Shown one piece after another: positions 2,044 through 17,997 of a DNA stretch of 64,000 nt (within the stretch, counting starts at the first letter, position 1; each line of letters starts with the position of its first letter). Made by a program: the position numbers and the translations under genes. The notes beneath the pieces are model-generated. The model ran no database searches and was not told the DNA's origin. It saw only the letters and a list, made by a program, of their open reading frames with translations. Origin of the DNA: Clostridia bacterium (lineage in GTDB: Bacteria; Bacillota; Clostridia; RGIG6154). The stretch spans positions 10,908-74,907 of the forward strand of contig JAZRDC010000068.1 in assembly GCA_045660065.1 (NCBI GenBank), in the 5' to 3' direction.

Positions 2044-2883
2044 TCAGTTTTCTTTTATATGTTTTCCCGGAGTGGTATTTTCAAGTTCTTTAAAGGTGCG
2101 GCAAAATGACTGCACCGAAGAAAATCCGCATTTTGCTGCAACAGATGCAACGGAATTATCTATATACAAGAGTTCTTTTGCACGTGATATGCGAAGCAAA
2201 CGGATATATTCTGAAAGCGTCGTATGTGCTTGAGATTTAAAAAGTTTTGAAAGATAGTCGGTGCTTAAGCCTAAATAGTTAGCGGTGCTTTTTGCGCAAA
2301 GTGATGAATCACTGAAGTGTGCTTCGATATATTGCATAGCGCGGAAAACATAGTCGGTTTTGTGATGCAGGGTGCTTTCTTCGGCGATTTCATTTTCATC
2401 TAAAAACAAGGCAATAAGTTCAAGCATTTTTTGTTTTAAAAGCAGGTGGTGAGAGTCATCGCCTGCCTTTTTTGTTTCATTTATACATTTGCAGATTTCT
2501 GTGATGCGGGCAAGATGCTTTGTCGCAATTTTATAGCAACACTTGTCTGCAAAATACATTTCATTGGAAGAAAGCGGTCTGTTTTTATCTTTGTGGGATA
2601 CAGGGGTTTCTGTTTCAAACAAATCAAAATAGATGTAGATAAGTTCTAATGGTTCGTCTGAATGGTTTTCAATTATCTGATGCATATATGGAGGTATGAT
2701 TTCCATTGTTCCGGGGGTAAGAGTTCGCCTGCATCCGTTTACTTCGTGTATGCCGGAACCGTTAAGTACATGAATAAATATATTGCAACTTTCAGAGGAA
2801 ACTGCGTAGGGAAGATGTCGGATGTGGCGTATAGTTTTACCACTATGCAAAACAACGGGGGAGATTTGCGTGATTTTTTTTAT
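2044..2883 (-). CDS. AraC-family transcriptional regulator (cupin plus HTH); start apparently ATA
   Basis: C-terminal AraC HTH (LSTDYLSKLFK...VAAKCGFSSVQSFCRTFK). SD AAAGGA sits 9 nt before ATA-AAA-AAA-ATC at 2883. The ORF-track extension to 2997 reads like non-coding AT-rich DNA. Confidence 0.85.
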   Translation of the reverse strand: MKKITQISPVVLHSGKTIRHIRHLPYAVSSESCNIFIHVLNGSGIHEVNGCRRTLTPGTMEIIPPYMHQIIENHSDEPLELIYIYFDLFETETPVSHKDKNRPLSSNEMYFADKCCYKIATKHLARITEICKCINETKKAGDDSHHLLLKQKMLELIALFLDENEIAEESTLHHKTDYVFRAMQYIEAHFSDSSLCAKSTANYLGLSTDYLSKLFKSQAHTTLSEYIRLLRISRAKELLYIDNSVASVAAKCGFSSVQSFCRTFKELENTTPGKHIKEN

Positions 2884-2958
2884 GTTTATCAGTCCTTTTT
2901 TGTAATATATAATAATAGTAATATAATTTTTGACGTTTGTAAAGCGCTTTTTTAAGAA

Positions 2959-2992
2959 AAATATCGTGTTTTGATAATAAAATACGATATTT
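2959..2992. promoter_or_regulatory. Inverted repeat in the divergent AraC/GH127 promoter region (candidate operator); LacI/CcpA-like core aaagcgcttt nearby at 2941-2950
   Basis: aaatatcgtgtttt-gataat-aaaatacgatattt. Confidence 0.4.
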
Positions 2993-3058
2993 GGCAATTG
3001 ACAATTATCAAATTACGAATTAAACTGAAATAAAGTATGTTAATAGGGAGAGATAACC

Positions 3059-4987
3059 GTGAAAGAATATAAAGTAAAAGACTTATTCGCTGAAGCACGA
3101 ATGGAAGATGTATGCATAAATGGTAAAATCGGTGCTTTGATGGACACATTCTTCAGGGAAAGAGTGTTGTCTGATTTTGCTAAAAATGTTATATATAAAG
3201 AAACTGAAGATGCTTTCCGCAATCAGATTGATGATGAAGCAGGAATTTATGGCATCTGGCAGGGCGAATACTGGGGTAAATGGGTTATAAGTGCGGCAAG
3301 AGTTGCAAGGTATTACGGGAACGAAGAACTCAAAGCCTTTTTGAAAAAGGCGGCATATAATCTTATGGAGTTCCAACGCGAAGACGGATATCTTGGTACA
3401 TATAAAGACTCTGCTTTTGTGTATCCTGCTGACCCTGAAGTTACCAAAGCCACTTTAGGTTGGGAGTGCAACTGGAACTGGAACATCTGGTGCAGAAAAT
3501 ACACTCTTTGGGGAATGGTTGAACTTTATCAGCTTCTTGGCGACAAAAAAATCCTTGAATGTGCTGTCCGCCATGCAAGTCAGTTGGTTGATGAAGTTAA
3601 AGAGAAAAATATTATAGTTGCAAAAACAGGAACTTTTTCAGGTGTTGCAAGTTGTTCTATTATGAAACCGATTCTTATTTTGTATCGCATTACAGAAGAT
3701 AAAAAATATCTTGATTTCTGCCTTGAAATTGCAGATTATTGGGAAAAAGAAAAACCGGGACTTATTGTTAACTCTTTAGCGGACAAAGACACCTGGGATT
3801 GGTATGATGATTTTAAATCATGGTCAAAGACCTATGAATCTCTTTCTTGTTTTGACGGATTGTTGGAACTTTATCGTGTAACAGGTGAGAAAAAATATCT
3901 TGATGCTACCGAAAAATTTTATGAAATCTTAGAAAGATGCGAAAAAAATCTTTTGTTCAGCGTTGGATATAACGATAACTACAGTAATGCTATAGCAGAA
4001 ATTAATGCTCTTACAGAACCTTGCGATGCAATTCATTATATCCGTGTTTGTCACGAGTTATTTAAACTCACAGGCAAGGTGAAATATCTTGACAGCTTAG
4101 AACTTTGCTATTTTAATCCTATGCTTGCAAGTCCCTGTAAAGACGGCAAGTGGGGAGCAAGAGTTGTCAGAGGCGCAAGTATGCAGGGGTATGCACACTA
4201 TCAGGCGAAAATGGAGCATAGCCATTGTTGCGTAAATAATATTCCAAGAGGTCTTTTGAACATAACAGAATGCTCTGTTATGACAAAGGGAAGTCAGTTG
4301 TTTGTGAATATGTACCATAACTATGATGCGTCTGTTGAAATTGACGGAAAGGCAGTAAAAGTAACTGTTAAAGGCGATTATGTTGCAGACAGCAGTGCGA
4401 AAATATATATCGATTCTTTGGTTGATGTTGTTTTGCGTATTCCTTTCTGGACAAAAACAGGAAAAGTTGTTGTAAACGGAAAAGAATTTATTGCAGAAGC
4501 AGGATTCTTTGCAATCAAAGCCACAGACATTCCTGAAATCGGCAAAAATACTATTGAAATTGAAATCGAATTTGACAACAGTGTTCAGATTTATCAGTTC
4601 AAAAAGCCTGTACCTCAGCATAAAGAGGGGGAATGGTGGTATCACAGCTGGTGCTGTTACAGAAACGGCGAGGAATGGAATTTTGACAAACACTTCGGCA
4701 GAAGCTTTTTAAACAGTCCTCGATGCACCTTAAGAAAAGGTGTTGTGCTTTTAAGCAGAAGTAAACTTATCGGCAACACCTCAGAAGAAATGTTTGACGG
4801 CATAAATCTTATCGATGACCAGTATACATGCACACTTCAAAAGTGCGAAACAGATGCAGATGTTCAGGGGATGTGGCTTGCAACCTTTACAAAAGGTGAT
4901 AAGAGCTTTACAACAAAAGTTTGCGATTTCCCATTTGCGGCAAACTTCGAACAGGCAGATCACGAATATTTCTCAATGTATTTTTAA
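3059..4987 (+). CDS. Glycoside hydrolase family 127/146 (beta-L-arabinofuranosidase-like, DUF1680)
   Basis: E-x-C (TEPCD) and CC (HSHCCVNN) Zn/catalytic motifs; GEYWGKW and NWNIW..KY segments typical of the family. Confidence 0.85.
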   Translation: MKEYKVKDLFAEARMEDVCINGKIGALMDTFFRERVLSDFAKNVIYKETEDAFRNQIDDEAGIYGIWQGEYWGKWVISAARVARYYGNEELKAFLKKAAYNLMEFQREDGYLGTYKDSAFVYPADPEVTKATLGWECNWNWNIWCRKYTLWGMVELYQLLGDKKILECAVRHASQLVDEVKEKNIIVAKTGTFSGVASCSIMKPILILYRITEDKKYLDFCLEIADYWEKEKPGLIVNSLADKDTWDWYDDFKSWSKTYESLSCFDGLLELYRVTGEKKYLDATEKFYEILERCEKNLLFSVGYNDNYSNAIAEINALTEPCDAIHYIRVCHELFKLTGKVKYLDSLELCYFNPMLASPCKDGKWGARVVRGASMQGYAHYQAKMEHSHCCVNNIPRGLLNITECSVMTKGSQLFVNMYHNYDASVEIDGKAVKVTVKGDYVADSSAKIYIDSLVDVVLRIPFWTKTGKVVVNGKEFIAEAGFFAIKATDIPEIGKNTIEIEIEFDNSVQIYQFKKPVPQHKEGEWWYHSWCCYRNGEEWNFDKHFGRSFLNSPRCTLRKGVVLLSRSKLIGNTSEEMFDGINLIDDQYTCTLQKCETDADVQGMWLATFTKGDKSFTTKVCDFPFAANFEQADHEYFSMYF

Positions 4988-11421: not shown

Positions 11422-13179
11422 ATGGACATTTTTGCGATTTTAAATTTGATCGGCGGATTGGCGTTGTTCCTTTTTGGTATGGACCTTATGGGAGACAGCC
11501 TTAAAAAACTCGCCGGCGGAAAATTGGAATCAATACTTGCAAGACTTACATCTAACAGAATTAAAGGCTTTTTGCTTGGTTTTATAGTAACTGCAGTTAT
11601 TCAGTCATCATCTGCAACAACAGTTATGCTTGTAGGTTTTGTAAACTCCGGTATTATGAAACTGGGGCAGACAATAAGCATTATTATGGGTGCAAACATC
11701 GGTACAACAGTTACTGCGTGGCTCCTTAGTACTGCGGATATCAAAGGTACTGCAATTATACTTAAATTGTTAAAACCTGAGTCGTTTACACCAATCTTAG
11801 CAGCAATCGGTCTTATTATGACAATGGTTGCAAAAAAAGACACCAAGAAAAACACAGGAACAATCCTTTTAGGTTTTGCAATCCTTATGTTTGGTATGGA
11901 TGCAATGAGCGGTGCGGTTGAAGGCCTTCGTGATAACGAAACCTTTACAAATATGCTCACAATGTTCTCAAATCCTTTAATGGGTATTTTAGTTGGTACA
12001 ATTTTTACTGCAATTATTCAGTCATCATCAGCATCTGTAGGTGTTTTGCAGGCGCTTTCGCTTTCTTGTATCATTCCATACTCAACTGCAATCCCTGTTG
12101 TTTTGGGTCAGAATATCGGAACAACAATCACACCGATTATCTCATCAATCAGCGGTAACACAGAATCAAAACGCGTGGCGTTTACCTGCCTTTATATTAA
12201 AATGATTGGTGTTATAATAGTAGTTGGAGTATTCTATATCCTCCACGGAGCACTTGATTTTGCGTTTATGAATGAGCGTGCAAGTGCGGTTAACATCGCT
12301 CTTGTTCATACATTGTTTAATATATTATCTACAATTATTTTATTGCCGTTCTGCTCACTTTTTGAAAAACTTGCAATTAAAACAGTTAAAAGCAAAAAGG
12401 TTGAAGAAGAAACAGATATATTCTCAACTCTTGATGAAAGATTTTTGGAAGTACCTGCATTTGCTGTTGAAAAATGTAAAGAACTTGTTTGCGAAATGGC
12501 AAACATTTCAGGGGAAGCATTTAAACGTGCTGCCAAACTTTTAAATAATTTCAATGATGAAGAATTTGAAGAAATTGCAAAACTCGAAGGCGCAGTTGAT
12601 AAATACGAAGATAAAACAAGCACATATCTTGTAAAAATTGCGGCAAGTAATATGTCAGCCAAAGACAGTAAAGTTGTAACAGAACTTCTTCATTGCGTAG
12701 GAGATATTGAAAGAATTTCTGACCACGCGCTTAACTTAGCAGAAGTTGCACAGGAAATCCACGATAAAAAAATCGACTTTTCACCAAAGGCGAAAGAAGA
12801 TATCAGAATTATCATAAATGCAGTTTCAAACATTTTAGACCTTGCTATTTCTTCACTTGTTAATGAAGATATTGAAATTGCAAAGCGTGTTGAACCATTA
12901 GAACAGGTTATTGACAGACTTAACAGAAAAATCAAAAACGGTCATATCGAAAGACTCCGTCAGGGCGACTGCACAATGGAACTTGGCTTCATTTTGTCAG
13001 ACCTTCTTACAAACTGTGAAAGAGTTGCAGACCATTGTTCAAATATTGCAGTATGCTTTATTGAAATGTCCCACGATTCATTTGAAACTCACGAATATTT
13101 AAATCAGCTTAAAACAAGTGGTGAACAGTCATTTAACGATATGTACGCATTCTACAAACAGAAATATTATATTGAGTAG
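11422..13179 (+). CDS. Na+/Pi cotransporter with PhoU-like C-terminal domains
   Basis: Two QSSSA repeats, GANIGTT/GQNIGTT, ERISDHA and ERVADH. Confidence 0.9.
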   Translation: MDIFAILNLIGGLALFLFGMDLMGDSLKKLAGGKLESILARLTSNRIKGFLLGFIVTAVIQSSSATTVMLVGFVNSGIMKLGQTISIIMGANIGTTVTAWLLSTADIKGTAIILKLLKPESFTPILAAIGLIMTMVAKKDTKKNTGTILLGFAILMFGMDAMSGAVEGLRDNETFTNMLTMFSNPLMGILVGTIFTAIIQSSSASVGVLQALSLSCIIPYSTAIPVVLGQNIGTTITPIISSISGNTESKRVAFTCLYIKMIGVIIVVGVFYILHGALDFAFMNERASAVNIALVHTLFNILSTIILLPFCSLFEKLAIKTVKSKKVEEETDIFSTLDERFLEVPAFAVEKCKELVCEMANISGEAFKRAAKLLNNFNDEEFEEIAKLEGAVDKYEDKTSTYLVKIAASNMSAKDSKVVTELLHCVGDIERISDHALNLAEVAQEIHDKKIDFSPKAKEDIRIIINAVSNILDLAISSLVNEDIEIAKRVEPLEQVIDRLNRKIKNGHIERLRQGDCTMELGFILSDLLTNCERVADHCSNIAVCFIEMSHDSFETHEYLNQLKTSGEQSFNDMYAFYKQKYYIE

Positions 13180-13187
13180 GTGTGCTT

Positions 13188-14051
13188 ATGGAACTTTCAA
13201 TAAATATTGCCTATGTTGCCAAAATGCGAGGCACAGATAGCAAGCGTGATATTGGCGAGTGTGCAAAACTTATAAAAGAAGCGGGATTTAACTATGTTGA
13301 TTTCGGAGTCGCAAGACTCGTTAAGGAAGACAACTGGGAAAAGATTTTTGCTGAGGCAAGAGAAACAATAGAAAAAGAAGGTCTTAAAATTAATCAGACT
13401 CACGCACCATATGTTTTTTCAGGGGTGGACGAGGATGAATATCGCGAGGATATGAGACGCTCTTTTGTGGCAAGTCATATATTAGGGGCAGAAAATATTG
13501 TTATTCACGCAGATAAGTATGTACCTGACGAAAAGGGTTTTAATCCCGAAGTTGCATTAAAAGAAATTTGTGATTTTTACTCACCTTTTGTAGATTATGC
13601 AAAAAAGGTTAATCTTAAGGTGGCGGTAGAAAATCTTTTTGAAGGCCGAACAGTTGAAGGCCCGACTGATTTTGCCAACAGAACAAGATATACTTCTTAT
13701 GTTGAGGAACAGATTGCGGTGATTGAAAATTTCAATGACCCTATTGTTACAGGTTGCTGGGACTTTGGACACGGTCAGGTTTCATACAGATATAACTATA
13801 TGGAAGGCTTGAAAAAAGTCGGCAAATATATAACGAGCACTCATGTTCACGATAATTTCTGGGGACAAGATCTGCATAATATGCCTTTTCATGGCGATGT
13901 TCCATGGGAAGATGTTATGGCATATTTAAAAGAAATCAACTACCCTGGCAAGTTTACGATGGAGGCGGTGTATGGATCGTTCCCTGATGCACTTCTTCCA
14001 CACTACTTAAAAATGTGGTATGAAACAGGAAAATATCTTGTGAATCTTTAA
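13188..14051 (+). CDS. Sugar phosphate isomerase/epimerase (xylose isomerase-like TIM barrel)
   Basis: AVENL, WDFGH, THVHDN..DLH..P..G, F.ME metal-binding motifs. Confidence 0.8.
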   Translation: MELSINIAYVAKMRGTDSKRDIGECAKLIKEAGFNYVDFGVARLVKEDNWEKIFAEARETIEKEGLKINQTHAPYVFSGVDEDEYREDMRRSFVASHILGAENIVIHADKYVPDEKGFNPEVALKEICDFYSPFVDYAKKVNLKVAVENLFEGRTVEGPTDFANRTRYTSYVEEQIAVIENFNDPIVTGCWDFGHGQVSYRYNYMEGLKKVGKYITSTHVHDNFWGQDLHNMPFHGDVPWEDVMAYLKEINYPGKFTMEAVYGSFPDALLPHYLKMWYETGKYLVNL

Positions 14052-14058
14052 TAATTAA

Positions 14059-14092
14059 AAAAGCATTTGTAAAAATATTTACAAATGCTTTT
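14059..14092 (+). terminator. Intrinsic terminator
   Basis: aaaagcatttgtaaa/tttacaaatgctttt. Confidence 0.75.
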
Positions 14093-14137
14093 ATTTGTGG
14101 TAAAATAGGCACATAATATTAAAAAGGATGTGAATTT

Positions 14138-14200
14138 ATGGACGCGTATCCCGGGCGATGGAATACAATCGAATATTTTGGGGCGGTCCGTATTTTTTAA
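14138..14200 (+). CDS. Putative 20-aa leader peptide (MDAYPGRWNTIEYFGAVRIF) of mgtE
   Basis: SD aaaagga 9 nt upstream; the ORF covers the antiterminator strand ggggcggtc. Confidence 0.55.
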   Translation: MDAYPGRWNTIEYFGAVRIF

Positions 14201-14239
14201 GTTTTTTGTTGACCGCCTTGTTTAAGGAGGTCTTTTTTT
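14180..14239 (+). promoter_or_regulatory. Attenuator of mgtE (antiterminator versus terminator/SD-sequestering hairpin)
   Basis: ggggcggtc (14180-14188) or aaggaggtc (14224-14232) can each pair with gaccgcctt (14211-14219); T7 follows. Confidence 0.65.
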
Positions 14240-15577
14240 ATGAATGAAAAAATCAGTGAAATGATTTCAAACAAGCAAAACTTAAGTCAGATCAGACAGA
14301 ATCTATTAGAAGAAAATCCTGCTGATATTGCAGTACTTTTTGAAGAATTAGAGAAAGATAATTTAGTCAGGGTGTTCCGCCTTTTGCCCAAAGAACTTGC
14401 GGCGGAAGTGTTTACCTATATGGAGCCTGATTTACAGCAGAGCATCGTAGAGGCGATAACTGACCGAGAACTTTCGGGCATTATTGACGAGTTGTTTTTG
14501 GACGATACTGTGGACTTTATTGACGAAATGCCCGCCAATGTTGTAAAAAGGGTTTTGAAGAACACAGATCCTAACACAAGACAACTTATAAATCAATTTT
14601 TGCAGTACAAGGAAGATTCTGCAGGAAGTATTATGACAGTTGAATTTGTTGATCTTAAAAAACAAATGACTGTTAAAGAAGCATTTGAGTATATCAGAAA
14701 AACAGGTGTTGACAAAGAAACGATTTATACCTGCTATGTTACAAACAAAAACCGAAAACTTCAGGGCGTTTTGTCTGTAAAGGATTTGCTTCTTGCAGAT
14801 TACGAGGATGTTATTGAAGATATTATGGACACAAATGTTATTTCTGTCCATACCGATGACGACAAAGAAGAAGTTGTAAATGCCTTAAGTAAATACAACT
14901 TTTTGGCACTTCCTGTTGTTGACAAGGAAACAAGACTTGTTGGTATTGTTACTATCGACGATGCTATTGATGTTTTGCAGGAAGAAAATACAGAAGATAT
15001 CGAAAAAATGGCGGCGATTACGCCATCTGACAAGCCATATTTCAAAACAGGTGTTTTTGAAACCTTTGTGCAGAGAATTCCCTGGCTTATGCTTCTTATG
15101 ATTTCTGCGGCCTTTACAGGTGCAATTATTTCTCATTTTGAAGAAGCCCTTGGTAAAATGGTGGTTTTAACATCGTTTATTCCTATGTTTATGGGTACGG
15201 GCGGTAATGCAGGCGGTCAGTCGTCTGTTACAATTATCCGTGGTATTTCACTTGGAGAAATTGAATTTTCCGATTTGCTAAAAGCCGTGTGGAAAGAAAT
15301 CAGAGTTGGTGTTTTGTGCGGAATAGCACTGGCGTTGGTAAACTTTTTGAAACTCATGATTTTTGACAGAGTAGGTTTAGAGGTTTCTATGGTTGTAAAT
15401 CTTACCTTGGTTGCAACAGTATTTTTTGCAAAAATCATCGGTTGCGTACTTCCGATGATTGCGAAAAAATTAAAACTCGACCCTGCGGTTGTGGCATCAC
15501 CTTTTATCACAACAATTATCGATGCTTTGTCTTTGGTAATTTACTTTAATATTGCATCTAATGTTTTAGGTATATAA
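14240..15577 (+). CDS. mgtE: Magnesium transporter MgtE
   Basis: N domain, CBS pair (SAGSIMT), GGNAGGQS, DPAVVASPFITTIID. Confidence 0.95.
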   Translation: MNEKISEMISNKQNLSQIRQNLLEENPADIAVLFEELEKDNLVRVFRLLPKELAAEVFTYMEPDLQQSIVEAITDRELSGIIDELFLDDTVDFIDEMPANVVKRVLKNTDPNTRQLINQFLQYKEDSAGSIMTVEFVDLKKQMTVKEAFEYIRKTGVDKETIYTCYVTNKNRKLQGVLSVKDLLLADYEDVIEDIMDTNVISVHTDDDKEEVVNALSKYNFLALPVVDKETRLVGIVTIDDAIDVLQEENTEDIEKMAAITPSDKPYFKTGVFETFVQRIPWLMLLMISAAFTGAIISHFEEALGKMVVLTSFIPMFMGTGGNAGGQSSVTIIRGISLGEIEFSDLLKAVWKEIRVGVLCGIALALVNFLKLMIFDRVGLEVSMVVNLTLVATVFFAKIIGCVLPMIAKKLKLDPAVVASPFITTIIDALSLVIYFNIASNVLGI

Positions 15578-15602
15578 AAAATCGCCGAAAGGCGATTTTT
15601 TT
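15577..15602 (+). terminator. Intrinsic terminator
   Basis: aaaaatcgcc-gaaa-ggcgattttt. Confidence 0.85.
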
Positions 15603-15665
15603 GTTGAAAAATATAGAAAAAGGTGATAAAATAAAGAGGTCGAAACGGGAGTTGGATTTTAAAGT

Positions 15666-16613
15666 ATGAAAACAATTTTTGTGATAAACCCAATGGCGGG
15701 TAAGAAAAACAATATTGAAAAATTGAAAAATCAAATAAATAAAGCATCTTGTGCTTTGCGTGAAGATGTTGAAATTTATGTTACAAAAGCAGTTTCTGAT
15801 GCAACAGAATTTGTGAAAAATTACTGCAAGGCTAACGGAAGTGCAAGATTTATCGCAGTTGGCGGTGATGGTACACTTTCTGAAGTTTTAAACGGTGCAA
15901 TGGGATCCCCAAATGCCGAAGTGGGCGTTATACCAATGGGTACGGGGAATGATTTTTGCAGAAATTTTAAAGATTGTGATTTTAACGATATTTTGTTGCA
16001 AATTGAAGGGCAAAGCGTAAAGTGCGATGCAATAAGATATAAAACAACAGTCGGCGGGAAAGAAAAGGTTGGGTACTGCGCAAATATGTTCAACATCGGG
16101 TTTGACTGCAATGTGGCAGACACAACTGATTACATCAAAAAAAGTGGTGTTGCAGGGTCTATGGCATATTTTGTTTCTATTCTTGTAACTTTGGTAAAAA
16201 GAAAATGTTCTCATCTTGAAATAGAACTGGACGGAGAAAAGGTCCATAAAGGCGAACTTCTGCTCACATCTTTGGCAAATGGTTGCTTTTGCGGGGGCGG
16301 AGTAAAAAGCAATCCTCTTGCGAGTGTATGCGATGGAAATATCAACATAAACATTATAAAGAAAGTTCCGAGAATTAAATTTGTTTCCCTTTTGCCACAT
16401 TATATGAAAGGCACAGTGCTTGAGTTAAAAGGCATTGAAAAATACATAACATCAAAACTTGCAAAAAAGATAACTGTTACACCCCTTTCGGGTAAAATGA
16501 GAATTTGTATAGATGGGGAAATTGCAGATGCAGGAAAGACAGAGTTTGAAGTTGCCCACAACGCCTTTAACTTTGTTTTGCCCAAAAAGTCAAAAGTTCT
16601 GATGGAAGTTTGA
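15666..16613 (+). CDS. Diacylglycerol kinase-family lipid kinase (YegS/BmrU-like)
   Basis: INPMAG, GGDGTL.EV.NG, P.GTGNDF, DGE motifs. Confidence 0.9.
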   Translation: MKTIFVINPMAGKKNNIEKLKNQINKASCALREDVEIYVTKAVSDATEFVKNYCKANGSARFIAVGGDGTLSEVLNGAMGSPNAEVGVIPMGTGNDFCRNFKDCDFNDILLQIEGQSVKCDAIRYKTTVGGKEKVGYCANMFNIGFDCNVADTTDYIKKSGVAGSMAYFVSILVTLVKRKCSHLEIELDGEKVHKGELLLTSLANGCFCGGGVKSNPLASVCDGNININIIKKVPRIKFVSLLPHYMKGTVLELKGIEKYITSKLAKKITVTPLSGKMRICIDGEIADAGKTEFEVAHNAFNFVLPKKSKVLMEV

Positions 16614-16621
16614 AATAAAAT

Positions 16622-16645
16622 AAAAAGTGCCGAAAGGCACTTTTT
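16622..16645. terminator. Bidirectional terminator
   Basis: aaaaagtgcc-gaaa-ggcacttttt between convergent genes. Confidence 0.85.
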
Positions 16646-17924
16646 ATTTTATTTCAATATTTTCACAGTTTTTAAGTGTAATGTCTTTTCCATTCTGATT
16701 TGTAACAGTTACATTGTTTAATGTGCAGTCTTTGGCATTTTCAATGTAAATTCCTTCTGCTTTTGTCATTGGAATGTTTGGTGCTAAAATAGGAATTTGT
16801 GTTCCTGAAATTTCATTTTCTTTCATCTCTATTGAAATGTTGCTTAATGTAATTCCTGAAATTGGAAGTTCAGGAAGTCCCTTCATATAAATAGCACTTA
16901 CACAGGCATTTTTTGCAGAAATATTGCTGATGTTTATGTTTTTAATATAAGGAGTTTTATCTGTAACAGGTTTTTTATCATCAGAGAACAAAAATTCGTC
17001 GCTTCTGTCACAGTTGCAGAAATAATATTCGTTAATGCAGACAGGCACCCATACTTTGTCCATAATGATGTTTGAAAACATCATATCTTCTAAAGATCCG
17101 CCACGAAGTCTTCTTGTTTTAATTCTTACACCTCTGTCAGTTCCGTTGAATACGCAGTTGTTAACAACAACATTTTTAATAGAACCTGACATTTCACTGC
17201 CGATTACCACACCGCCGTGGCCGTTGAGCATTGTGCAGTTTGTGATGGTAATGTTTTCGCAAGGCATTGATTTTTTGAAGTTTTCTTCTTCTGTACCCGC
17301 TTTGATTGTAACACAGTCGTCGCCAACATCAACATAGCAGTTTGAAATATGAACATTCTGACAACTTTCAGGGTTAATTCCGTCTGTGTTCGGTGAGTCT
17401 GACGGATTCTTGATTGTAATTGCGTCAACTGTTACATTGTTGCAGCAAAGTGGATGAACTGTCCACATTGCAGAGTTTACGATTTTTATGTCGCGGATAG
17501 TAATATTTTTGCAGTTTACAGGCTGAACCGCTCTTGGGCGGTTCTGATTTTCAGGGTCGTGCCACCAGTTGTAGCCTCTGCCGTCGATGGTTCCTCCGCC
17601 TGTGATGGTTACATTTTCCGCATTTACTGCACCAACTAAACCTAAATTGAAGTTTTCGCCATAGTCGCCTAAATTTTTATCTTTTAAAGAAAGGTAATTT
17701 TCTTTCTTTTCACTACCAAGGATTGTAGCGCCCGGGGATATAAACAAAGTTGTATTGCTTTCTAAACATATTGAGCCTGTAACATACTGCCCTGATGGAA
17801 GAAAAATTATTCCGCCTCCATCGGCACCTACTTTTTCTGTTAAATCTTTAAATGCTTTAGTATTGTCGGTTGTGCCGTCAGGAATGATGTTGTACTGGGT
17901 TGCATCGTAAAATGATTTAATCAT
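16644..17924 (-). CDS. Glycoside hydrolase family 28 (polygalacturonase)
   Basis: NTDG, GDD, GHG and RIK catalytic motifs; SD aaggaga before ATG 17924. Confidence 0.92.
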   Translation of the reverse strand: MIKSFYDATQYNIIPDGTTDNTKAFKDLTEKVGADGGGIIFLPSGQYVTGSICLESNTTLFISPGATILGSEKKENYLSLKDKNLGDYGENFNLGLVGAVNAENVTITGGGTIDGRGYNWWHDPENQNRPRAVQPVNCKNITIRDIKIVNSAMWTVHPLCCNNVTVDAITIKNPSDSPNTDGINPESCQNVHISNCYVDVGDDCVTIKAGTEEENFKKSMPCENITITNCTMLNGHGGVVIGSEMSGSIKNVVVNNCVFNGTDRGVRIKTRRLRGGSLEDMMFSNIIMDKVWVPVCINEYYFCNCDRSDEFLFSDDKKPVTDKTPYIKNINISNISAKNACVSAIYMKGLPELPISGITLSNISIEMKENEISGTQIPILAPNIPMTKAEGIYIENAKDCTLNNVTVTNQNGKDITLKNCENIEIK

Positions 17925-17997
17925 AAATGTTCTCCTTAAGTAAAATATAAAATCATTATACCATAAAAATGCAAGAATGTAAAGAGGGAGCAATTTG

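Follow-up and report, generated by a model that had tools for sequence, protein, structure and literature searches.

An upstream open reading frame with an invariant CGA codon probably forms a leader-peptide attenuator of mgtE in Clostridia

The Mg2+ channel gene mgtE is a textbook target of the M-box riboswitch in Firmicutes. In enterobacteria, the transporter genes mgtA and corA are instead under the control of the upstream open reading frames (uORFs) mgtL and corL, and are repressed when these are translated efficiently at high Mg2+ (PMC11552253, PMC11282234). Efficient uORF translation favours a terminating conformation of the leader, and poor elongation at proline and acidic codons at low Mg2+ switches the genes on (PMC11552253, PMC11282234, bioRxiv 10.1101/2021.02.02.429294). 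Here we analyse the mgtE leader in a 64,000-nucleotide stretch from a Clostridia bacterium (GCA_045660065.1, contig JAZRDC010000068.1). This whole stretch is called the window, and coordinates are window positions, with all leader features on the + strand. The leader (about 14113-14239) is probably a leader-peptide attenuator of a previously undescribed family, and very likely a real control element, so far undescribed, that works through the ribosome and resembles MgtL of E. coli. MgtL/mgtA, together with CorL/corA, is its closest functional analogue; the searchable literature yielded nothing on a leader peptide or uORF of mgtE in Firmicutes.

The features of the leader and the gene that it precedes are as follows.

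14123..14133, + strand: extended Shine-Dalgarno (SD) sequence of the leader ORF, AAAGGATGTGA, 4 nucleotides ahead of the ATG
14138..14200, + strand: leader ORF (uORF) of 20 codons, encoding MDAYPGRWNTIEYFGAVRIF, with ATG at 14138 and the stop codon TAA at 14198-14200
14150..14158, + strand: predicted programmed slow site, Pro5-Gly6-Arg7 encoded by CCC GGG CGA, the last a rare codon
14137..14159, + strand: region 1, the 5' strand of helix P1, comprising the last spacer base, the start codon and codons 2-7; its partner in the minimum-free-energy (MFE) fold is 14168-14192
14177..14192, + strand: region 2, the 3' strand of P1, whose core 14180-14188, GGGGCGGTC (Gly-Ala-Val codons), doubles as the antiterminator 5' strand
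14211..14219, + strand: region 3, GACCGCCTT, which can partner region 2 (antiterminator) or region 4 (terminator and SD trap)
14224..14232, + strand: region 4, the terminator 3' arm, AAGGAGGTC, which holds the mgtE SD sequence AAGGAGG (SD duplex -12.3 kcal/mol)
14233..14239, + strand: U7 tract between the 3:4 hairpin and the mgtE ATG, adjoining both
14240..15577, + strand: mgtE, the regulated gene, a 445-amino-acid Mg2+ channel (Pfam MgtE_N, CBS, MgtE) with homologues 57-96% identical

A preliminary description of this leader, made from the letters alone, had proposed an SD-preceded 20-codon uORF at 14138-14200, and this ORF is confirmed, as is the placement of every other element that it named. 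The duplex of its SD with the 3' end of 16S rRNA, at -11.5 kcal/mol, lies beyond the 1st percentile (-10.0) of 13-mers from the window. For comparison, we fetched 80 loci from species-representative genomes whose encoded MgtE is 57-88% identical to that of the window, almost all of them metagenome-assembled genomes (MAGs) labelled Clostridia, Oscillospiraceae, Acutalibacteraceae or Ca. Fimenecus. Seven further close relatives (MgtE 87-96% identical) were added through exact-protein look-ups, and the set compared comprises 88 loci from Oscillospirales-type MAGs. A uORF was counted as a family member if it lay upstream of mgtE, started with M-[D/E]-[A/T/S/G] and contained CGA in frame within 25 codons or fewer. 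By this criterion a homologous leader ORF is present in at least 73 of the 88 mgtE loci, and three more are listed besides. All 11 close relatives keep the uORF, and its family occurs at about 75 of the 88 loci. A metagenome pattern search (GTGA-N3-7-ATGGAYGCNTAYCCNGGNCGA) contributed no new diversity, its matches being a duplicate of L001 and a chance match in a GC-rich gene.

The family peptide follows the pattern M-[D/E]-[A/T/S]-G-S...[P/G]-R-[S/G/W], as in MDAYPGRW (window clade), MDALPGRS (L078), MDTGSSNSIKPGGRS, MDTGSIKPDGRS, MDAGSTPRGR, MDAGSAKSAEPNPRS and MDTGSAISADPNPPRS; we provisionally name it 'MgtE-L', M-D-[A/T]-G-S...[P/G]-R(CGA). The start codon is ATG in 70 cases, GTG in 4 and TTG in 1, and the uORF SD in relatives reads GGA[A/T]GTGA or GAGGTGA, with a family median duplex of -11.5 kcal/mol against a window background median of -2.3 kcal/mol. 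Codon 2 is GAC or GAT (Asp), with Glu (GAA/GAG) in four uORFs, and codon 3 is GCN, ACN or TCN with all wobble bases in use. Glycine is encoded by GGA, GGC or GGT, the proline before the arginine uses all four CCN codons (or a GGN codon stands in that place), and the codon after the arginine is AGT or TCT (both Ser), GGT, TGG or others. Given these start codons, the strength and spacing of the SD, the synonymous variation and the frame-keeping of CGA described below, we conclude that the uORF is read as codons. On sequence and comparison, we place high confidence in its being a genuine conserved regulatory ORF.

The preliminary description had singled out Pro-Gly-Arg(CGA), and this proves to be the most conserved feature of the family, with an invariant CGA although the codon makes up only 4-5% of arginine codons. 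CGA is presumably read through I:A wobble. All 68 non-redundant uORFs with the motif encode its arginine by CGA, after Pro in 33 and after Gly in 27, whereas CGA accounts for 4.7% of arginine codons in mgtE at these loci and for 4.1% in the long ORFs of the window; other arginine codons occur freely elsewhere within the same uORFs. Within the first 75 nucleotides of the uORFs, CGA trinucleotides fall in frames 0:1:2 in the proportion 74:20:16. The presumed stall site [P/G]-R-[S/G/W] and the N-terminus MD[A/T]GS are both conserved, at a variable distance: CGA stands anywhere from codon 5 to codon 16 (12-45 nucleotides from the ATG), and the frame is always kept. The window clade shows CCG for CCC, GCA for GCG and Thr for Ala, with CGA unchanged. 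Codon identity, and not the amino acid alone, is thus under selection.

Those uORFs without the motif CGA have no motif arginine at all (GAA, CAA or CCT instead), and none swaps in a synonymous arginine codon. Five of them (L006, L005, L041, L047 and L032) keep an MD[A/T/S]G start and have lost the motif arginine, reading GGG-GAA, AUU-CAA or CCC-GGG-CCU, or being reduced to a 13-codon ORF; these may be decayed or re-wired versions. Assays in the Salmonella his leader found CGA to be slower than CGU and CGC, which are decoded by the same tRNAs (PMC4046918). The slowest codon pairs in those assays include CCG-GGG, CCG-GGT and Pro-Pro, and Pro-Gly and Pro-Pro are described as 'hyper-slow' (PMC4046918). 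On the strength of these measurements, Pro-Gly-Arg(CGA) is a plausible built-in slow site.

Codon-level conservation also bears on two readings in which translation would not be the sensor. In the first, the small ORF would encode a trans-acting micro-protein, such as a partner or regulator of MgtE, its upstream position reflecting an operon. This would fit an ORF that is conserved and always linked to mgtE, and many versions end in hydrophobic residues (AAFCAVVF, LAFIVLFT, GAVRIF). Yet conservation is limited to the first ~5 residues and [P/G]-R, whereas spacing, length (13-57 amino acids), stop positions and C-terminal halves vary without conservation. Furthermore, one invariant rare synonymous codon is inexplicable at the protein level, and the ORF overlaps mutually exclusive helices that involve the mgtE SD. 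The tails themselves are explained by the pyrimidine-rich P1 3' strand (GCC GUU GUU UUC and similar): because this U/C-rich strand complements the purine-rich ribosome-binding site (RBS) of the uORF, they are not evidence of a membrane peptide. We therefore consider a micro-protein extremely unlikely. Similar hydrophobic tails are seen, for example, in L010, L022 and L072, and at 14180-14197 in the window.

In the second reading, the element would be a cis-regulatory RNA structure (a riboswitch or a leader bound by a protein) closed by P1 and carrying a conserved loop with GGUGA, AUGGAC and CGA, the reading frame being incidental or secondary. P1 covaries well and encloses conserved nucleotides, CGA and AUGGAY are conserved as nucleotides, and in many families codons 3-10 or the CGA site complement the anti-SD strand beyond swapped controls. 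What argues against it is the three-base periodicity of the ORF, with free wobble in Asp, Ala/Thr, Gly and Pro codons and Ser as either AGT or TCT, and the preference of CGA for frame 0 (74 versus 20 and 16) despite ATG-to-CGA distances of 12-45 nucleotides. The start alternates among ATG, GTG and TTG behind a strong and correctly spaced SD, and the P1 loop has no conserved internal helices or junctions and no Rfam match. This reading is improbable in our judgement. No M-box or other Rfam family was found in the leader, either in a whole-window search at gathering scores or in a permissive search of 14000-14300. For the M-box (RF00380, a covariance model of ~169 positions with a threshold of 44 bits), there was no hit in the 64-kb window and none up to E = 10 in 14000-14300, although this search does detect M-boxes in 26 related loci. 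The Rfam searches of the window gave one tRNA outside the leader and otherwise noise, including the sole match to a leader family (Phe_leader, 14 bits against a threshold of 55).

Returning to a translated leader ORF, three mutually exclusive helices share strands in the window leader. As the preliminary description had proposed, the Gly-Ala-Val codons (14180-14188) complement 14211-14219, forming the antiterminator 2:3 of 9 base pairs including two G.U pairs. The latter segment can instead pair with the segment holding the mgtE SD (14224-14232), which T7 follows, to form the terminator and SD trap 3:4 of 8 base pairs plus one G.A mismatch. This structural reading is largely right, but it missed a third helix, P1 (1:2), which makes the leader a four-segment attenuator and hides the RBS of the uORF. 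The energies of the isolated segments are -19.8 kcal/mol for P1, -13.4 for 2:3 and -10.2 for 3:4. From this ladder, P1 plus 3:4 should win when region 1 is free, and 2:3 should win when region 1 is covered. The MFE fold of the free leader is indeed P1 plus the terminator, with 14137-14159 paired to 14168-14192.

Across families, the 5' strand of P1 runs from the 3' end of the uORF SD through the spacer and start codon to codons 2-3, and its partner lies within the 3' half of the uORF. The spacer between SD and ATG differs among families, so that P1 can be tested for covariation. With 46 distinct spacers, own pairs average -16.6 kcal/mol and swapped pairs -11.5 kcal/mol, and none of 5000 permutations is as good; the own partner ranks 1-6 of 46 in 38 cases. 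P1 is thus predicted to sequester the uORF's own RBS once its 3' strand has been transcribed, with the CGA site in its loop. Among the 11 close relatives, the proportion of paired cells is 96% for P1, 91% for 3:4 and 99% for 2:3, and a T-run of 5-7 before mgtE is retained in every one. L003 shows a compensatory change from A-U to G-C in the 3:4 helix. As far as in silico checks reach, the preliminary proposal holds. Lack of conservation of the uORF and of both pairings was one of the outcomes that the preliminary description had named as fatal to its proposal; both pairings are kept in the close relatives, as is the uORF, although covariation within the clade is no better than in shuffles.

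We also folded leaders with a ribosome-sized mask. If the mask is centred so that Gly6 occupies the P site and CGA the A site, the window MFE contains 2:3 and the terminator is gone. All 11 clade members fold with the terminator when free, and 7 of the 11 lose it under this CGA-stall mask. Moving the mask to the stop codon covers region 2, and in the window and L083-L088 the terminator then forms again. For these leaders, the folds are in line with the earlier proposal that full translation would mask the antiterminator.

The four-segment layout also recurs in L078, an independent family (GTG start, MDALPGR(CGA)S), where a by-eye reading finds it built from unrelated sequences: GUGUG:CACAC as 1:2, GGCACACC:GGUGUGCC as 2:3, and a 12-base-pair terminator plus U6 that contains the SD. 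A first terminator formed by P1 and the U-run at 14193-14198 was considered and rejected, as this U-run is not conserved. The window has two U6 runs after P1, at 14193-14198 and 14203-14208; both are absent or broken in L087, L001-L003 and L089, and are therefore probably AT-rich filler.

We propose the following model for the window. The short ORF would be translated from its strong SD, and its 5' part (start to codon 7) and 3' part would make P1. Region 2 could alternatively join region 3 as the antiterminator, and region 3 could alternatively join region 4 as the terminator and SD trap. In a leader without a ribosome, P1 and 3:4 would form, transcription would stop and the mgtE SD would be hidden, which is the OFF state. 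A ribosome held on the first ~9 codons would cover region 1 and release region 2, and the built-in slow step would arise when Pro-Gly fills the E and P sites while the rare CGA, which is decoded slowly, waits in the A site. The freed region 2 would then capture region 3 as it emerges, such that RNA polymerase reads through and the mgtE SD is open (ON). A ribosome running fast to the stop codon would cover region 2, or would depart so that P1 re-forms, and both outcomes are OFF; the re-formed P1 would hide the uORF RBS and block re-initiation. Because ribosome position would set which helices form, the output would report the dwell time of the pioneer ribosome at [P/G]-Arg(CGA). Sequence and comparison establish the ORF, its conservation both as peptide and as codons, and the three helices that exclude one another; translation of the uORF, the pause at CGA, the polarity of the switch and its signal are parts of the model that we infer. 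We hold the full window model, in which a pause on codons 1-9 leads to antitermination, with moderate confidence.

Overlaying the sister families on the window shows one uORF family joined to several platforms, some with an apparently different geometry, such that the single switch design of the preliminary description fits the window and does not extend to all relatives. In 26 of the 80 loci, the uORF SD is preceded at 15-30 nucleotides by an M-box (69-106 bits) that has its own terminator and U-run.

About 900-1300 in each locus: M-box in L004, L005, L010, L011, L013, L016, L018, L022, L023, L026, L028, L031, L033, L034, L040, L045, L052, L054, L056, L057, L063, L064, L072, L074, L075 and L077

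Because an M-box with its own terminator can precede it, the uORF module is a separable unit; in L054 the M-box is present with no recognisable uORF. The earlier verdict 'not an M-box' is thus correct for the window, but related loci combine an M-box with the uORF. An upstream ORF beginning MDTDCCREKW... in some loci was dismissed as a chance ORF, as it lies inside the M-box aptamer.

In most sister families there is no U tract before mgtE, and a local hairpin sequesters the mgtE SD instead. What competes for the anti-SD strand also differs. The window clade uses the P1 3' strand (about -16 kcal/mol). Codons 3-10 (CAGGAAGC...AAGURC, an RBS mimic) compete at -16 to -21 kcal/mol in the M-box-linked families and many others; here own pairs score better than swapped pairs (-13.4 against -11.0 kcal/mol), and none of 5000 permutations is as good. 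As CGA stands at codon 11-16 in these families, codons 3-6 can emerge behind a ribosome paused there. In some PGGR, PDGR and PRG families, the CGA site itself (e.g. GGGCGAAG or CGAUGGUGCGCG) is the competitor, at -13 to -23 kcal/mol.

CGA site as the best complement of the anti-SD strand or terminator 5' strand: L017, L019, L029, L046, L051, L058, L079 and L080

With three locations found (P1 3' strand, codons 3-10 and CGA site), a single 'region 2' common to all families is rejected. The first two geometries would give the ON state with a ribosome held at CGA. The common denominator would be that ribosome time on the uORF decides the fold, with details that vary as they do among riboswitch expression platforms.

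A number of results weigh against this model and its extension to the family. The leader fold is moderately unusual at most (z = -2.3, with 4 of 200 shuffles equal or better); the decisive evidence is conservation in relatives. The clade sequences are too similar for covariation: P1 and 3:4 have a single compensatory pair apiece, a result that 59 of 500 shuffles equal. The 3:4 hairpin is weak (8 base pairs, one mismatch, -10.2 kcal/mol) and was unflagged by a simple terminator scan; it may act as an SD trap alone. At the MFE level, 4 of 11 clade members keep the terminator under the CGA-stall mask. The uORF stop codon of L001-L003 and L089 abuts or overlaps region 3, such that a ribosome at the stop would block the terminator, and here the claim that full translation means OFF does not hold. 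Equilibrium masking changes the probability that the window SD is unpaired only modestly, from 0.25 to 0.34. The equilibrium ribosome-mask model applied to 50 leaders gave no consistent SD opening (means of 0.32 free, 0.31 stalled and 0.36 at the stop), and because these means show no uniform effect we reject one thermodynamic model for all families. The CGA-site geometry would have the opposite polarity under naive masking, as the paused ribosome would hide the competitor. Where an M-box stands in tandem, the uORF could equally sense something besides Mg2+. Finally, the destabilising N-terminus of MgtL-type leaders is taken to be D/E/P-rich, with at least 4 of the 6 residues after Met being D, E or P (bioRxiv 10.1101/2021.02.02.429294), and the DAYPGR of the window peptide falls short at 2/6 (one acidic residue and one Pro).

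The comparison with MgtL is nevertheless close in several respects. Both are short uORFs in the leader of a Mg2+ importer gene. In E. coli K-12, mgtL (L091 432-485) reads ATG GAA CCT GAT CCC ACG CCT CTC CCT CGA CGG..., in which an acidic residue 2 and Pro codons are followed by Pro9-Arg10 = CCT-CGA, and clostridial sister families read [D/E]-P-x-P-(P)-R(CGA). In contrast, the target is a P-type ATPase there and the MgtE channel here, in another phylum. Termination is Rho-dependent there, whereas an intrinsic terminator plus SD trap is predicted here. The two leaders have no detectable sequence homology, the shared acidic residue 2 and Pro-Arg(CGA) being too short for a homology claim. In MgtL, the mechanism depends on an EPDP motif at the N-terminus, and the ribosome is destabilised within the first 6 residues (bioRxiv 10.1101/2021.02.02.429294). 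Some sister families do contain DPNPPR (4/6 D/E/P), but at residues 10-15. The invariant CGA of the clostridial family is undiscussed in the cited MgtL papers, and here the uORF RBS is hidden by a covarying P1. We do not claim membership of the MgtL family, because there is no homology, the window N-terminus is not D/E/P-rich, and the output, transporter class and phylum are all different. CorL also shares a uORF placed inside a leader stem-loop of a Mg2+ channel gene, and its translation is inverse to transporter expression and responds to intracellular Mg2+ (PMC11552253). It differs in its Rho-dependent termination, its peptide and its UUG start in E. coli.

What signal would the ribosome sense? 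The likeliest would be cytoplasmic Mg2+ or Mg2+-dependent translation capacity, with low Mg2+ giving slower decoding and peptidyl transfer at this site and hence more mgtE. The link to Mg2+ rests on the Mg2+-channel target and on the M-box that precedes the same uORF module in relatives, and we regard Mg2+-dependent translation as a possible signal, at somewhat less than even likelihood. Alternatively, the uORF could control mgtE through the same helices while sensing a non-Mg2+ cue that alters dwell at [P/G]-Arg(CGA), such as the supply of charged tRNA-Arg(ICG) or tRNA-Pro, translation capacity, ribosome-RNA polymerase coupling or a ribosome-targeting compound. All of the structural and conservation evidence fits this alternative equally well. 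A sensor of tRNA supply would conserve one invariant codon read by a single tRNA species, and the 26 relatives that already hold an M-box in series would fit a second, different input. Salmonella mgtL, too, has reportedly been proposed to respond to proline limitation.

Against a non-Mg2+ cue stands the presence of one Arg codon and one or two Pro codons, as opposed to the tandem runs of amino-acid attenuators. In most bacteria one tRNA serves CGA as well as CGU and CGC, so the choice of the rare codon points to decoding kinetics and not to charging. Moreover, the only downstream gene seen across all 88 loci is the Mg2+ channel gene mgtE, and enterobacterial Mg2+ transporters use the same kind of uORF in a Mg2+-dependent manner. 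We consider a non-Mg2+ cue unlikely, though far from negligible.

The known attenuators and leaders provide further points of comparison. The trp, his, phe, thr and leu attenuators share the four-segment logic, in which 1:2 and 3:4 with a U tract oppose 2:3, a leader ORF overlaps segment 1, its stop precedes segment 3 and an early stall gives read-through. The window has the short leader ORF with an SD, and its exclusive helices 2:3 and 1:2 overlap the ORF. It has no tandem regulatory codons, as the window uORF contains one CGA after Pro-Gly in place of a cognate-codon run, and its target is not a biosynthetic operon. Additionally, the terminator 3' arm here is the SD of the regulated gene, and helix 1:2 hides the RBS of the leader ORF. 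The element is therefore a leader-peptide attenuator by architecture that lacks the run defining the attenuators of amino-acid operons. Leaders of the ermC and cat type likewise use a short leader peptide and an early ribosome stall to refold the RNA and free a downstream SD, and most sister families here resemble them in having an SD-sequestering hairpin without a U tract. However, they require a drug in the exit tunnel, none is implied here, and the CGA feature has no counterpart there.

The M-box (ykoK, RF00380) controls mgtE in Firmicutes through an intrinsic terminator and stands upstream of the uORF module in relatives. Whereas its ~160-nucleotide aptamer senses Mg2+ without translation, the conserved unit here is a 20-codon ORF, with the M-box absent from the window. 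In M. tuberculosis, the conserved small uORF rv1805A lies behind an M-box in a Mg2+-stress operon (PMC12810186). There, the translational platform of the M-box directly controls the uORF and termination is Rho-dependent, whereas the clostridial M-box has its own intrinsic terminator and the uORF module is separate, occurring also alone as in the window. The published 'mgtE motif' (SRC-65-1) is confined to Thioalkalivibrio and is a large multi-stem RNA with the mgtE SD and AUG at the base of P4 (PMC11109978). Identity with it is rejected on taxon and architecture, compared by description, and there is no such Rfam match in the leader.

Taken together, these comparisons suggest a family built from one sensor (peptide plus codon) joined to several expression platforms, namely a terminator, an SD trap and an RBS mimic. 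A translation-based module that replaces or follows the M-box in many gut Clostridia would change the view of Mg2+ homeostasis there. If the signal is Mg2+, uORF control would extend from enterobacterial mgtA and corA to a third transporter class examined, in another phylum. The invariant CGA after Pro or Gly also frames the question of which translation step is Mg2+-limited in vivo, with CGA decoding and peptidyl transfer from Pro or Gly as candidates, and E. coli mgtL, with the same codon pair, may have a component that has been overlooked. Tentatively, and with less than even expectation, the ribosome may be the mgtE sensor in a widespread leader-peptide family found in gut and rumen Clostridia. 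CGA dwell time would be read by the helices, either alone or in a two-checkpoint circuit with the M-box; Pro-Arg(CGA) in mgtL would be a convergent Mg2+-sensitive decoding step; and MgtA, CorA and MgtE would all be governed by uORFs.

Two features stand immediately upstream of the leader.

14059..14092, + strand: terminator hairpin of the upstream gene, serving the TIM-barrel gene 13182-14051; 15 base pairs, AT-rich, scored on both strands by the scan
14078..14106, + strand: sigma-70-type promoter, TTTACA, 17 nucleotides, TGgTAAAAT (extended -10), with 10/12 hexamer matches plus TG

The promoter is also found in close relatives. The 3' arm of the terminator hairpin overlaps its -35 hexamer, and this nesting is kept in L083-L088. 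Judged from the promoter sequence, transcription probably starts at ~14113, which would give a leader RNA of ~127 nucleotides (about 14113-14239).

In the gene neighbourhood (11422-17993), mgtE is preceded by a Na/Pi cotransporter with PhoU domains (11422-13179) and the xylose-isomerase-like TIM-barrel protein (13182-14051). Downstream lie a lipid kinase of the DAGK/YegS type (15666-16613) and, on the minus strand, a GH28 pectinase (16644-17993). Because the genes flanking mgtE differ among close relatives, the leader appears to travel with mgtE alone. In L074, an Acutalibacter MAG, a 6S RNA gene (2882-3078, minus strand; 48 bits, just above threshold) lies directly downstream of mgtE.

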